Below, one piece after another: positions 10,770 through 14,725 of a stretch of 64,000 nt of DNA. Below the pieces are notes generated by a model that saw nothing but the letters and a program-made list of their open reading frames with translations, made no database searches and was not told where the DNA came from. The DNA is taken from assembly GCA_022729235.1 (NCBI GenBank), contig JALDAJ010000001.1, positions 608,001 to 672,000 on the forward strand, in the 5' to 3' direction. How positions within the stretch are numbered: the stretch's first letter is position 1; every line of letters starts with the position of its first letter. This stretch comes from Candidatus Nanohalarchaeota archaeon. GTDB lineage: Archaea > Nanohalarchaeota > Nanosalinia > Nanosalinales > Nanosalinaceae. Both the position numbers and the translations under genes were made by a program.

Positions 10770-12512
10770 TCAAAATTCTTTGAGGTCGTTTCCGTCCATG
10801 AAACCTTTGAGGCTCTTCTCTAACTCTTCAACATTTACTCTTACCTGTTCAGTGGAGTCCCTGTCCCGGAGAGTCACGGTCCCGTCTTCCAGGGTCTGGT
10901 GGTCCACGGTCGCGCATATCGGCGTACCGATCTCGTCCTGCCGCCTGTAACGGCGACCGATAGCGCCTGAATCATCATACTTCACGGAGAAACCGCTTTC
11001 TCTTAGGCTCCTGGCGACTTTTCGTGCGCGCTCTCCCATCCCGTCCTTATCCATCAATGGGAATACAGCCACTTCTACAGGTGCGACTTCCGCGGGTAAG
11101 CGGAGAACGGTTCTCTCCTCTCCATCTACTTCGTCTTCCTCAAGGTTATGCGCTAGAACCGTGTAGAGTATTCGGTCGACACCGAACGACGGTTCTACAG
11201 TTTCAGGCATGATATGTTCTCCGGTCTCCTCAACTTCTTTTCGTGTAAATCCTGTTTTCTCCACGGGAACATTTACAGTCTCGCCATCGATTTCCAAGCT
11301 GATGCTTTCCTGCTCCTCGAACCTCTCCGGTTCTTCCTCCGCGATTCTCCCGAGTTCGTCCGCGATATCTGAGGCGCGGTCACCGTATTCAGGTCCAAGG
11401 ACGCTCATGTCTGGACTGACGGTTGCTTTCTCCACGGTCTTGGGCTCGTCGTATGGCTTGAAAACAGTGAAGTCTTCGCCCGAGTGCTCCTGGTGCTTCT
11501 TGAGGTCGTAGCATCCTCTGTACGCGAAACCTGTGATTTCAATCCAGTCACCTCCGACTTCAGATTCGGCGTCCCAGCAGTCGCTCGCGTAGTGCGACCT
11601 CTCGTCCTCCAGGTGCTGCCGGAACCTGAACCGGTCCATATCGATACCTATCCGCTCGTACCACTTCTTTGAGATACCGAGATAGTATGCTATCCAGTCG
11701 CTCGCGACCACGCCGTTTTCGACTGCTTCCGCCACGGTCATCTCGAGTACTTCTCCGCCGTCTTTATCCTGCTCGTTGATAGGGTAAAGGCGGAGCTCGA
11801 CGTCTTCCACGTCCTCCATTTCCGGTTCGTCTTTTTCTGGATCGATAAAGAACTCCAGCTCTGCCTGCGTGAACTCTCTGACGCGGACAATCGATTTCCG
11901 CGGTGATATCTCGTTCCTGTAAGCCTTTCCTATCTGTGTAACCCCGAACGGCAGCTGGTTGCGGGCGTATTCTTTCCACTGAGGGAACTCGACGAAGATT
12001 CCCTGAGCTGTTTCAGGTCGTAAGTAGCCGGGTGAGGAATCTCCTGGACCGATGTTTGTGCCGAACATCAGGTTGAAATCGTCGACTTCCACGTCTGCCA
12101 GTTCCTCGCCGCAGTTCGGACACTGGAGGCTGTTTTCTTCGATTATCTCCATTATCCTATCGGTGGAGAAGCTCTCCGCCTCCTCGATATCCGTGTTATC
12201 CTCGACCAGATGGTCTGCCCTGATGGATTCGCCGCACTCGGGGCATTCTATTATCATGTCGTCGAAGGTCTCAAGGTGCCCGGATGCCTCGAACACGTCT
12301 TCAGGCATGATTGTCGGTGCTTCTATCTCCATGTTGCCTTCCTGGTAGGTGAACCGGTCTCTCCATACATCCTCCAGGTTTCTCTTCAAGGCGGTACCGT
12401 GGGGTCCGAACGTGTAGAAACCGGCTGTACCTCCGTAAATCTCATTGGAGGGAATAAAAAATCCGCGTCTCTTCGCCAGTTCTTTCAGGCTCTGTGTGGT
12501 ATTCTGGGTCAC
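10770..12512 (-). CDS. glyS: Glycine--tRNA ligase (alpha2 type)
   Basis: LRPETAQG, RNEISPR, REFTQAE, EPSFGVDR, IGRRYRRQDEIG. Start re-assigned to GTG 12512 because SD GAGGTG lies 6 nt upstream. Confidence 0.95.
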   Translation of the reverse strand: MTQNTTQSLKELAKRRGFFIPSNEIYGGTAGFYTFGPHGTALKRNLEDVWRDRFTYQEGNMEIEAPTIMPEDVFEASGHLETFDDMIIECPECGESIRADHLVEDNTDIEEAESFSTDRIMEIIEENSLQCPNCGEELADVEVDDFNLMFGTNIGPGDSSPGYLRPETAQGIFVEFPQWKEYARNQLPFGVTQIGKAYRNEISPRKSIVRVREFTQAELEFFIDPEKDEPEMEDVEDVELRLYPINEQDKDGGEVLEMTVAEAVENGVVASDWIAYYLGISKKWYERIGIDMDRFRFRQHLEDERSHYASDCWDAESEVGGDWIEITGFAYRGCYDLKKHQEHSGEDFTVFKPYDEPKTVEKATVSPDMSVLGPEYGDRASDIADELGRIAEEEPERFEEQESISLEIDGETVNVPVEKTGFTRKEVEETGEHIMPETVEPSFGVDRILYTVLAHNLEEDEVDGEERTVLRLPAEVAPVEVAVFPLMDKDGMGERARKVARSLRESGFSVKYDDSGAIGRRYRRQDEIGTPICATVDHQTLEDGTVTLRDRDSTEQVRVNVEELEKSLKGFMDGNDLKEF

Positions 12513-12590
12513 TTTTGACACCTCTGGAAAAGTTGTCGATTAGAAGCCTTAAAAACCGACAGGACGAAAGAGCTAGAACTGGTTAAAGGG

Positions 12591-12674
12591 TTATTCGAAA
12601 CACGTGAAGTGTTTCTCAACGCAACTTCCTGGAGAAAGCTGCGAGAGTCCAAAGTAGCCACCCTTGATTGACAT
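12591..12674 (-). promoter_or_regulatory. glyS leader ORF MSIKGGYFGLSQLSPGSCVEKHFTCFE* with putative +1 frameshift cassette GGT GGC TAC TTT GGA(Gly)
   Basis: Read by hand. The +1 frame is open from 12652 to 12509, and its TGA overlaps the glyS GTG. Confidence 0.7.
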
Positions 12675-12739
12675 AGATATCACAGTTGGTTCTGCTCGTG
12701 GAAAGCTTAAAAACCGTCCGAGTATTACGATGTAATATA

Positions 12740-13927
12740 ATGCCGGGTTCTGGAATGAAGAGTTTGGAAGATGCAGAGTTGGAAGGTAAAAGCGTGGTTC
12801 TCAGGACTGATCTAAACCTTCCTGTCGAGGACGGCGAGCCGCAGAAGACGGTCCGGTTTGAACGCTACATTGAAACAGTGAAGGAGCTCAGTGACGAAGG
12901 TGCGAGGACGATGGTAATCGCGCACCAGGGGAGACCGGCGAGGAAGGATTTCATGTCGCTGGAAAGACACGCAGAACTGATGTCGGAAGAGCTAGGGCAG
13001 GACGTTAACTTCGTACGGAGCTTCTTCGGACCGGAGCTTGGAGATGCAGTCGCCTCGATGGAGGACGGCGATGTAGTACTGCTTGAAAACATACGTTTCC
13101 TCTCCGAGGAGCTTCAAAACTTGCCCTCCGAGAGGCATTCTGATGATTATTTTATTGAGAATCTCTCCAGGTACTTCGATATTTTTGTAGACGATGCGTT
13201 CTCTGCATCACACCGCTCCCACGGATCGATAGTTGGATTCGTACCGCGCCTCGAATCCTATGCAGGACCTGTTATGCAGCGTGAACTGGAGAACTGTGGC
13301 AGGGTAAGAGATGAGCTTGACAATCCGTTGCTGGTTCTAGGAGGGGAGAAACCTTCCGATTTGATAGGTATGATGGAGCAGGTAATTGACCGGGCTGAGA
13401 AAGTACTGCTGGGCGGTATCCCTGGCGAACTTGCACTCAAGCTCCAGGGAAACGATCTCGGCGGGAAATCCGAGTGGATAGAGGAGCAGGGCTTTGACGG
13501 TAAGAGCAAGGAGCTTCAAAGAATCATCGAAGAACACGAGGAAAAGATAGTTCTGCCTGTAGATGTCAGAACGGACTCAGGTAACCACAAGATCGGTGAA
13601 GTCCCGGAAGGAGAGATGACATGGGATATCGGAGAGGAGACGCGGGAAAGGTTCGTGGAAGAGATAGGTGACGCGGAATCGATTGTCATGAAAGGTCCTA
13701 TGGGTGCGTTCGAGGATTATCCTGAGGGCACGCGAGCGGTAATCGATGCGATAGCAGAAAACGATGGCTTTACAGTACTCGGCGGAGGACACACATCTTC
13801 ACTTATACACCGATTCGGTCATGACCTCGACGAGTTCACACACGTCTCCATCGCGGGCGGAGCATTTGTCCGGTACATGAGCGGGGAAGAACTGCCCGCG
13901 GTCGAAGCGCTCAGGGAGTATTCTTAG
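12740..13927 (+). CDS. pgk: Phosphoglycerate kinase
   Basis: RTDLNLP, AHQGRP, LLENIRF, DAFSASHR, GGGHT, SIAGGA. Start is ATG 12740 or 12755. Confidence 0.93.
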   Translation: MPGSGMKSLEDAELEGKSVVLRTDLNLPVEDGEPQKTVRFERYIETVKELSDEGARTMVIAHQGRPARKDFMSLERHAELMSEELGQDVNFVRSFFGPELGDAVASMEDGDVVLLENIRFLSEELQNLPSERHSDDYFIENLSRYFDIFVDDAFSASHRSHGSIVGFVPRLESYAGPVMQRELENCGRVRDELDNPLLVLGGEKPSDLIGMMEQVIDRAEKVLLGGIPGELALKLQGNDLGGKSEWIEEQGFDGKSKELQRIIEEHEEKIVLPVDVRTDSGNHKIGEVPEGEMTWDIGEETRERFVEEIGDAESIVMKGPMGAFEDYPEGTRAVIDAIAENDGFTVLGGGHTSSLIHRFGHDLDEFTHVSIAGGAFVRYMSGEELPAVEALREYS

Positions 13928-13985
13928 GGTCCGGATGTTGCTGACTGTCGAAATATACTTAACGCAGACTTCACAATAATGACGT

Positions 13986-14152
13986 ATGCAGCAAGGTGGC
14001 TGTTTTTGGACTTTTGCATCTGAATGATTTAGACAGCAGTATTTCTATTCCGGGTGGATGTTTTTGGGCCATCTAGTCTTCTAAAGGACAGGTTACGCTT
14101 TTCCCTGAACTATCTCAGAATCTGCTCAGTAAGGGAGCTTTCATGGCTTTAA
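13986..14152 (+). promoter_or_regulatory. Trp leader A: MQQGGCFWTFASE* (13986-14027), with a second cassette PGGCFW in its +1 frame (14050-14067)
   Basis: GGT GGC TGT TTT TGG and GGT GGA TGT TTT TGG lie in successive +1 frames. TATA-like ACTTAA about 25 nt upstream. Confidence 0.6.
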
Positions 14153-14294
14153 TCAATTAAATCGGTTTTTATACACTTCAACATATTTTCTAAGTCTTTT
14201 AGATAGAAATAGTCATTATTCTATCTTTTTAGACTCTAAAAACCTCTAAAAGCTATTTAAAAGTTTTCTAACAACTGGAAAACACGTGATTAAA

Positions 14295-14369
14295 ATGACA
14301 AACGACACACAAGACGAAACACAGGCAGAAGCCCGACAGGGGGGATGTTTTTGGAGAACAAAATCTTGA
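14295..14369 (+). promoter_or_regulatory. Trp leader B: MTNDTQDETQAEARQGGCFWRTKS* with cassette GGG GGA TGT TTT TGG(Trp)
   Basis: TATTTAAA box and GTGAT SD-like sequence upstream. The +1 frame runs to TAG 14406 and overlaps the next ORF. Confidence 0.6.
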
Positions 14370-14389
14370 AGAAGTTGTAAAGGGGGGCA

Positions 14390-14725
14390 TTGCTGGAGCA
14401 GGGTAGAGAAAGGGCTGTTTCGGTAATTGATAACTGTCTAACGATTGATGTAGACTCTTTCGATGAGGAAGTCTATTCAGAGGTTTTTGAGGTGCTGTTT
14501 TCTCCTGAAGAAGGATATCTAAGAGATGTTCCAGAGGACTTCCAATTCCGGCTCAGAAAAATATCGAGGTTCACTGTCGGCTGGGGTACGGAGTACTCGG
14601 AAACATATTCCAATGAACTAACTGGCCGTGATATCCGGGAGATGCAGAGGAAGGCGGTTGAAGAATCGTACACAGTTGGCTATTCCTCTGAAAAGTTCAT
14701 CGAACTGTACGAGGAGGTGATGTAG
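14390..14725 (+). CDS. Hypothetical acidic protein upstream of trpS
   Basis: 111 aa with host-like acidic composition. Weak TTG start. Confidence 0.55.
   Translation: MLEQGRERAVSVIDNCLTIDVDSFDEEVYSEVFEVLFSPEEGYLRDVPEDFQFRLRKISRFTVGWGTEYSETYSNELTGRDIREMQRKAVEESYTVGYSSEKFIELYEEVM

Follow-up and report, generated by a model that had tools for sequence, protein, structure and literature searches.

We analysed a 64,000-nucleotide (nt) stretch of the genome of a Candidatus Nanohalarchaeota archaeon (here referred to as the window; the source genome comprises 1.03 Mb on a single contig) and, within it, the short leader that precedes glyS, the gene for glycine-tRNA ligase (GlyRS). Positions are those of the whole window, and features of the locus lie on the minus strand unless stated otherwise. 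We conclude, at a probability of roughly 0.75, that this leader is the glycine member of a nanohaloarchaeal family of leader open reading frames (ORFs) and acts as a starvation switch, in which a hungry-codon +1 shift assisted by a Shine-Dalgarno (SD)-like element would be followed by reinitiation at a GTGA overlap. The cassette with its cognate codon, an open +1 frame, the stop/start overlap, an SD-like element and a covarying stem-loop are all read directly from the DNA. Together they represent a real, conserved regulatory cassette, likely a new kind of amino-acid sensor. To our knowledge, it is an open question how archaeal synthetase levels are adjusted to tRNA charging, T-boxes and attenuators being bacterial.

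The leader ORF in the 0 frame, MSIKGGYFGLSQLSPGSCVEKHFTCFE (MSIKGGYFG...CFE; 12591 to 12674), starts with an ATG at 12674-12672 and runs for 27 codons to a TAA at 12593-12591, ending 81 nt short of the glyS start. Within it, the GGTG core of an internal SD-like element, AAGGGTGG (12658 to 12665), is 5 nt distant from TTT (12651 to 12653), the predicted slip codon in the P site. The next codon, GGA (Gly; 12648 to 12650), is the predicted A-site sensor codon, and in the +1 frame the A-site codon becomes GAC (Asp). An earlier note on this DNA (the original prediction) had picked out TTT GGA at 12653-12648 in the leader and a +1 frame open as far as a TGA at 12511-12509 that overlaps GTG 12512; both are present as described, the +1 frame extending over 47 codons (12509 to 12652). 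The resulting GTGA overlap (12509 to 12512) consists of the glyS start codon, GTG 12512-12510, and this stop codon, and glyS itself (10770 to 12512) encodes a glycine-tRNA ligase of 580 amino acids (TIGR00389, E = 2.6e-198). Taken alone, the locus is weak evidence and proves nothing by itself: a shuffled spacer leaves the +1 frame open up to the start in 20% of 1000 shuffles, and the case rests on orthologs.

Conservation of the cassette in glyS orthologs had been named as a check on the original prediction. Defining the cassette as a start codon, GGT-GRN-NNN, TTT and a Gly codon, we searched upstream of glyS in the 50 genomes of the source archaeon's nanohaloarchaeal family. Forty-three were scorable; three had too little upstream DNA, in three the 5' end of glyS was not recovered by the search, and one (G064) was left unscored, with the motif seen ~120 nt ahead of its glyS. 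The cassette was found in 35 of the 43, representing 16 genera, and this conservation supports the reading of the leader as a frameshift cassette with probable GTGA coupling. In the other four families, in which GlyRS is more distant, none of the 15 scorable glyS loci has it; these families do carry the cassette ahead of thrS, cysS and serS-like genes. A loose pattern matched only once in the 53 glyS loci of Halobacteria, within a long ORF, and three pattern matches in viral contigs included no cassette ahead of a synthetase. A nucleotide BLAST search with the leader gave matches in only 3 of 60 other genomes, so the cassette family is invisible to ordinary similarity search.

The codon columns of the 35 glyS cassettes read AAR (33), GGT (35), GGA/GAA/GGC (29/5/1), a variable codon, TTT (35) and GGA/GGG (34/1). 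TTT accounts for 27.5% of Phe codons and GGT for 28.6% of Gly codons in the genome, and their invariance in the cassette thus points to selection on nucleotides rather than on the peptide; TTT was also present in all 82 distinct coupled cassettes that we tabulated. The leader ATG lies 5, 7 or 10 codons ahead of TTT in the orthologs, and the 0-frame leader stop 51 to 118 nt 5' of glyS. The 16S rRNA ends in GGATCACCTCC, with the tail GGAUCACCUCC, to which the RGGUG(G/A) of the cassette is complementary, the GAA variant giving the better match. The distance from the SD-like element to TTT is 5 nt, compared with a mode of 7 to 8 nt at start codons of the genome.

In all 35 orthologs the first stop in the +1 frame fell within 15 nt of the glyS start, compared with none of 35 for frame 0 and 4 of 35 for +2, a result that rejects a -1 shift. 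The mean chance of such +1 stops at glyS in shuffled sequence was 0.22, and the product over the 16 genera, ~2e-10, is overstated since genera are kin. The spacers measure 72 to 165 nt. From the A-site codon to 15 nt before the start, they contained 0 stop triplets in +1, 91 in frame 0 (35 of which are the leader stops) and 50 in +2; counted past the leader stop, the numbers were 0, 55 and 35, and the 55 further 0-frame stops reject readthrough of the leader stop. A TATA-like box at about -30 of glyS supplies a TAA that lies in frame 0 in 9 genomes, in +2 in 16 and in +1 in none, and it thus appears that indels shifted its frame yet avoided +1. The frame is kept open without its peptide being conserved: substitutions in the +1 peptide (64 pairs) numbered 239, 253 and 186 at codon positions 1, 2 and 3, and with no third-position excess a functional +1 peptide was rejected. 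Transcriptional slippage was likewise set aside; the T run is 3 nt here and 4 nt in most orthologs, and slippage would leave the cognate codons unexplained.

All 35 +1 stops lie between -10 and +13 nt of the glyS start, with start-to-stop offsets of -10 (9 genomes), -5 (2), -1 (19), +6 (2), +8, +9 and +13, so that an exact NTGA overlap occurs in 19 of the 35. An SD-like word precedes the start in 26 of the 35. The arrangement at glyS is that expected for termination-reinitiation, namely an upstream stop that overlaps the start or lies within ~30 nt of it, often with an SD. The glyS start was assigned as the in-frame start closest to the +1 stop, and the circularity of this choice is small because only three genomes offer an alternative within 18 nt upstream. 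The glyS SD, GAGGTG (12519 to 12524), lies 6 nt 5' of GTG 12512 and includes the GTG at 12521 that the ORF list used as the start. Two observations uphold the original proposal that 12512 is the start and 12521 part of the SD. The conserved R-G of KRRGF lies 15 residues from the start if translation begins at 12512 (the range in all 35 orthologs is 13 to 16) and 18 if it begins at 12521, and an in-frame start inside the SD occurs in only 3 of 35 orthologs. On this comparison, GTG 12512 is very probably the glyS start, which would correct the annotated start of GlyRS. The initiator Met may be cleaved before Thr.

The same cassette precedes other synthetase genes. Scanning short ORFs of the source genome for GGN GGN NNN TTY, we found 55 sites, 10 of which showed long-ORF coupling or a long +1 frame; five of those 10 lie ahead of synthetases and carry the cognate codon behind TTT (Gly for glyS, Phe for pheS, Val for valS, Ser for serS and Thr for thrS), the Phe, Val, Ser and Thr members likewise being coupled to these genes. 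A looser scan of this genome added three Trp cassettes upstream of trpS, two further Trp cassettes, one His and one Ile. In relatives, 22 of 23 Val cassettes lie ahead of valS, and the scanned Thr, Ser, Tyr and Cys cassettes each lie ahead of the matching synthetase. The features common to the nanohaloarchaeal leader family (ATG, GGT-GRN-NNN, TTT, a cognate codon and a +1 frame open to the synthetase start) are all found at glyS.

Downstream of the sensor codon most glyS leaders also contain a stem-loop that is specific to glyS among synthetase leaders. The leader of the source genome folds with a z score of -3.0, and 0 of 200 shuffles were equally stable. The original prediction had placed a 7-bp hairpin, GAAACAC/GTGTTTC, at 12597 to 12615; this helix (helix 2) is present, 3 nt ahead of the 0-frame stop, but is minor and lineage restricted, occurring in 6 of the 35 orthologs with 5 to 7 pairs that include two-sided changes. 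The conserved structure is instead a 10-bp stem, CGCAGCTTTC/GGAAGTTGCG (helix 1; 12643 to 12620), that begins 11 nt from the first base of TTT. In the eight sequences with a helix of this type, 6 of 10 pairs are changed on both sides. Twenty orthologs have a shorter type, a 7-bp stem starting inside the GGA codon, with 87% of cells paired and 14 cells changed on both sides; none of 500 shuffles reached this level, and slid controls gave 22 to 41%. These two sets, which were picked by eye, together cover 28 of the 35 orthologs. Over the 35 nt 3' of TTT, the predicted fold was -8 kcal/mol or lower in 32 of 34 distinct Gly leaders, and z was -1.5 or lower in 29 of these 34 compared with 3 of 48 other leaders and 2 of 23 Val-codon leaders.

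What the stem-loop might do is constrained by the Val leaders. The original prediction had noted that UUU-to-UUG re-pairing at glyS would be weaker than at the Phe and Trp sites; it is weaker, but the same slip would occur ahead of valS (22 leaders), and a UUU-to-UUA slip ahead of thrS, so that perfect re-pairing is no general property of these cassettes. We rejected the hairpin as an offset for weak UUG re-pairing, since Val leaders face the same slip, mostly without a hairpin, and also as a barrier to initiation from the +1 TTG, since Val leaders with that TTG lack it. One idea is that glyS needs an extra pause: its stimulator GGT GGA encodes glycines, so that starvation would stall ribosomes upstream of the sensor too. 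Stem-loops 11 to 12 nt from the P-site codon are described as hindering A-site tRNA binding on E. coli ribosomes (PMC7282821), and the shorter stem starting inside GGA is reminiscent of the A-site hairpin described for T4 gene 60.

These features suggest the following mechanism. While charged tRNA-Gly(UCC) is plentiful, ribosomes would decode GGA and terminate 81 nt ahead of glyS, out of reach of coupling; as coupling is described as fading beyond 30 to 40 nt (PMC12548453), leader stops 51 to 118 nt ahead of glyS should be too far away for it. When charged tRNA-Gly is scarce, peptidyl-tRNA-Phe would sit on UUU next to an empty A site. GGUGG would then pair with the 16S tail, the spacing being reduced by 2 to 3 nt relative to start codons, and the ribosome would move to UUG/GAC with two of three pairs or skip the G without re-pairing, the stem-loop likely prolonging the pause. 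The shifted ribosome would cross the spacer in +1 and likely reinitiate on glyS at the GTGA overlap, and more GlyRS would recharge the tRNA and close the loop. Ribosomes on the spacer, which is G poor (G 12%, A 31%, T 32%, C 25%), may also shield the RNA from termination by FttA (aCPSF1), which the source genome encodes (TIGR03675). We did not find the wyosine enzyme TYW1 in the source genome (95% complete), and Trm5 is present. Easier shifting has been associated with light modification of base 37 (PMC5009743), and this pair of findings fits a slip-prone tRNA-Phe.

Several observations weigh against this model. Sixteen of the 35 orthologs lack an exact NTGA overlap, 8 of the 43 scorable family genomes lack the cassette at glyS, and the genomes are kin, so that ortholog counts overstate independence. 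UUU-to-UUG re-pairing leaves a G-G mismatch at the wobble position, and the spacing between SD-like element and slip codon is 5 nt, compared with 3 nt reported for prfB (PMC10798248). In 30 of 35 leaders the stimulator itself encodes Gly-Gly, and fewer glycine-starved ribosomes would reach the sensor because they would stall two and three codons earlier. The start of the stem-loop varies, lying 4 to 7 nt from the P-site codon in 21 of 34 leaders and 10 to 14 nt in 13 of 34, which does not suit a simple stimulator. Finally, a separate, leaderless glyS transcript could arise from the TATA-like box at -30.

We weighed the starvation switch against four other explanations. Ribosomes might be rescued at the hungry Gly codon, after which the small subunit would initiate afresh in +1 at GTG (GGT-G) or TTG (TTT-G), with no frameshift. 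GTG and TTG are both in the +1 frame (ORF 12661 to 12509), the TTG lies 6 nt behind RGGTG, inside the initiation spacing of the genome, and pelota is encoded. Such restarting is nevertheless unlikely: no start codon is available at the slip site of the Ser, Thr, Tyr, Trp, Phe, His or Cys cassettes, one thrS cassette with GGC (and thus no GTG) is still coupled by ATGA, albeit as a single example, and the invariant TTT would be left unexplained.

A real shift might alternatively have a mainly transcriptional output, in which +1 ribosomes cover the spacer and prevent FttA termination while reinitiation is secondary. The G-poor spacer, the presence of FttA (described as the likely cause of archaeal polarity; PMC12548453) and the orthologs that lack an exact overlap would all suit this explanation. 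Protection alone, however, would not require that all 35 +1 stops fall so precisely at the glyS start, and untranslated stretches are described as stable in Haloferax reporters (PMC6728339), which makes it quite improbable.

Covarying hairpins 3' of the sensor codon are also what classical attenuation without a frame change would predict: a ribosome stalled on GGA would alter the hairpins and free glyS, and the open +1 frame would be incidental. We regard this as very unlikely given the absence of stops in +1 against 91 and 50 in the other two frames, and given that non-Gly cassettes keep the open frame without a hairpin. There is, moreover, one sensor codon rather than a run, no intrinsic terminator or other terminator-like site was found at the glyS leader, and folding gave no conserved pairing over the glyS SD (predicted pairing 0.04 to 0.90 across the 35 leaders, with no common structure).

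The fourth explanation concerns promoters. TATA-like words occupy the -30 bin of 30% of 420 first genes of the genome, and they occur at -40 to -31 ahead of the leader ATG in 23 of 35 orthologs. In the source genome the putative box, GTTTTTAAG (12706 to 12714), lies 38 nt 5' of the leader ATG. A second box of the same sequence (12548 to 12556), the counterpart of that which 24 of 35 orthologs have at about -30 of glyS, is displaced to 42 nt 5' of the glyS start. This second box is a possible basal promoter, and judging from its position it may yield a basal glyS transcript to which the leader adds an inducible share. That the shift instead runs at a fixed ratio to give a constant low GlyRS level, or that the leader is an irrelevant relic with glyS driven by the second promoter alone, would suit this box and the genomes and families without the cassette at glyS, but is highly improbable, as the match of codon to synthetase in seven systems would be left unexplained and a relic would accumulate stops in +1.

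The glyS spacers share a further word, like TTCAAAACC, which lies 30 to 60 nt before most cassette-bearing synthetase starts (glyS, e.g., in leaders L017 and L012, and also the Ser, Thr, Tyr and Val leaders). It occurs in 31 of 35 glyS spacers compared with 10 of 420 upstream regions of first genes, and the source genome has TTTAACC in its place. ACCC was found with AAG in 10 of 38 cassettes and with AAA in 0 of 30 (Fisher p = 0.002, with the source genome added by eye). Long-range pairing of AARGGT with the spacer AAAACCYT was rejected, being predicted at 0.3 or more in only 6 of 34 leaders, and the position of the word follows the gene start, not the leader. Base composition may underlie the link between ACCC and AAG; the AARGGT-AAAACCYT pairing remains a lead.

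Individual glyS leaders show further variation. In leader L125 (genome G029) the leader is apparently collapsed, with ATG GCA ATC AAG GG fused to an SD-like GGTG and no nearby ATG in the glyS frame, which appears to reflect a deletion between two GGTG words or a misassembly. In L006 (G063) the +1 frame stops 13 nt upstream, at an ATGA from which a five-codon mini-ORF starts; the stop of this mini-ORF overlaps the glyS ATG, a possible two-step relay. L036, on a contig titled Colwellia polaris, carries a glyS leader identical to that of the nanohaloarchaeal genome G045 and is probably mis-binned or mislabelled. AAA GGT at the start of 19 of the 35 glyS leaders, and of many others, is a possible glycine-hungry +1 site (AAA to AAG) leading into the same open frame, which could give glycine cross-talk to other synthetases.

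Among the other cassettes of the source genome, the three Trp cassettes upstream of trpS lie at 13980 to 14400 of the window (plus strand); the +1 frame of the first enters the second in frame, and the third has GGG GGA, not GGT GGA. The two further Trp cassettes are far from trpS, at G000:C1 831471 and 831806 (+), and a 148-amino-acid ORF coupled to the latter had no NCBIfam or Pfam match at the thresholds used. The Ile cassette (KGGRFI; G000:C1 457142, +) has a 49-codon open +1 frame with no synthetase or long ORF at its end, and the +1 frame of the His cassette (G000:C1 884414, +) ends ~30 nt inside the small first gene of an operon in which hisS is two genes further on. The gene glyA (serine hydroxymethyltransferase; G000:C1 543434-542280, minus strand) begins one base past the serS stop, and the serine cassette would therefore also control this enzyme, which links serine and glycine.

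On its plus strand, the first TATA-like box reads CTTAAAAAC and lies ahead of the divergent pgk. A palindrome, TATTAC-N3-GTAATA (12723 to 12737, both strands), is located between this shared box and the pgk start (ATG 12740). Further copies occur at G000:C1 254948, 523393 and 883775, and near-copies at 704361 and 944567. The four perfect copies lie 14 to 17 nt 5' of pgk, a Glu/Leu/Phe/Val dehydrogenase gene (with a malic enzyme gene divergent), a DeoC-family aldolase gene and a ROK kinase gene, and one near-copy lies ahead of a nucleotidyl transferase gene. The palindrome resembles an operator of carbon metabolism and might also affect the glyS leader promoter.

Bacterial T-box riboswitches and leader-peptide attenuators match synthetase supply to the charging of the cognate tRNA through a cognate codon in the leader. 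The proposed glyS switch differs in having one codon in a translated frame and an output by change of reading frame. No Rfam match to a T-box was found at E values up to 5 in 12400 to 12800, where the only match was a chance one to a microRNA (E = 3.5); the distance from GGTGG to the cognate codon is 7 nt, and 5 of 35 leaders have GGTGA instead. A leader-peptide attenuator is likewise at odds with a single sensor codon, the lack of a terminator-like site and family members without hairpins.

The closest parallels to individual steps come from programmed and starvation-induced shifts. As described for prfB (release factor 2), an internal SD 5' of a U-rich P-site codon accompanies a +1 shift, and negative feedback arises because a slow A site reports how active the product of the gene is (PMC10798248). 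The SD-like element just 5' of the slip codon is shared with glyS. The prfB sensor, in contrast, is a stop codon that senses release factor, whereas that of glyS is a swappable sense codon (GGA or GGG in 35 of 35); prfB yields a full-length fusion protein, whereas the peptide made by the glyS shift would be dispensable, its synthesis bringing the ribosome to a separate start, where the +1 frame ends in 35 of 35. The SD spacing and slip also differ, being 3 nt and CUU-to-UUU at prfB (PMC10798248) and 5 nt and UUU-to-UUG at glyS. In hungry-codon shifting (Gallant) and in Ty1/Ty3, as in our proposal, a slow A-site sense codon is described as promoting a +1 shift, and for Ty3 good re-pairing is reported not to be required (PMC5009743). 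The shift at the glyS family appears to be programmed and amino-acid specific, and according to a 2016 review no example was then known of starvation-driven shifting put to use for a starvation-specific product (PMC5009743).

Other systems resemble the output. In the ketolide-induced ermC leader, shifted ribosomes are described as entering the spacer and the next gene is switched on (PMC5009743); the trigger there is a drug and activation occurs by RNA unfolding, with no codon-specific sensor or stop/start overlap in that account. For the overlapping upstream ORF of C. elegans zip-2, elongation defects, including RNA interference against tRNA synthetases, are proposed to cause +1 shifting that activates the gene (PMC11831180), but zip-2 is described as a general stress sensor, eukaryotic, with no defined site and a fusion product. 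Overlapping genes of Haloferax are reported to show strict coupling in which the SD acts in reinitiation but not in initiation de novo, and the NTGA termination-reinitiation of Haloferax volcanii shares with glyS the overlap and the SD upstream of the second start (PMC6728339); at glyS, ribosomes would enter the upstream partner frame only by shifting. A 2021 review lists a single reported programmed frameshift in a cellular archaeal gene, a -1 shift (PMC8211752). Full-text literature searches returned no title or abstract describing a system like that of glyS, with subscription journals mostly outside their coverage and prior mention possible.

If the proposed mechanism is correct, the cassette would be both an archaeal cellular +1 programmed shift and a functional use of starvation-driven shifting. 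Because one codon alone sets specificity, it could be tested in Haloferax by a few point changes, and a compact biosensor for any aminoacyl-tRNA might be built from it. The glyS member, with its weak re-pairing, two upstream Gly codons and private hairpin, is the hardest test of the model. Extending the comparison across the synthetase leaders, we think it reasonably probable that the family is a portable, codon-programmable amino-acid sensor combining a hungry-codon +1 shift with termination-reinitiation, in which the glyS stem-loop would compete with Gly-tRNA at the A site and sharpen a sensor burdened with a two-glycine stimulator. It would then be the first natural regulatory use of starvation-driven shifting and an archaeal counterpart of the T-box and the attenuator.

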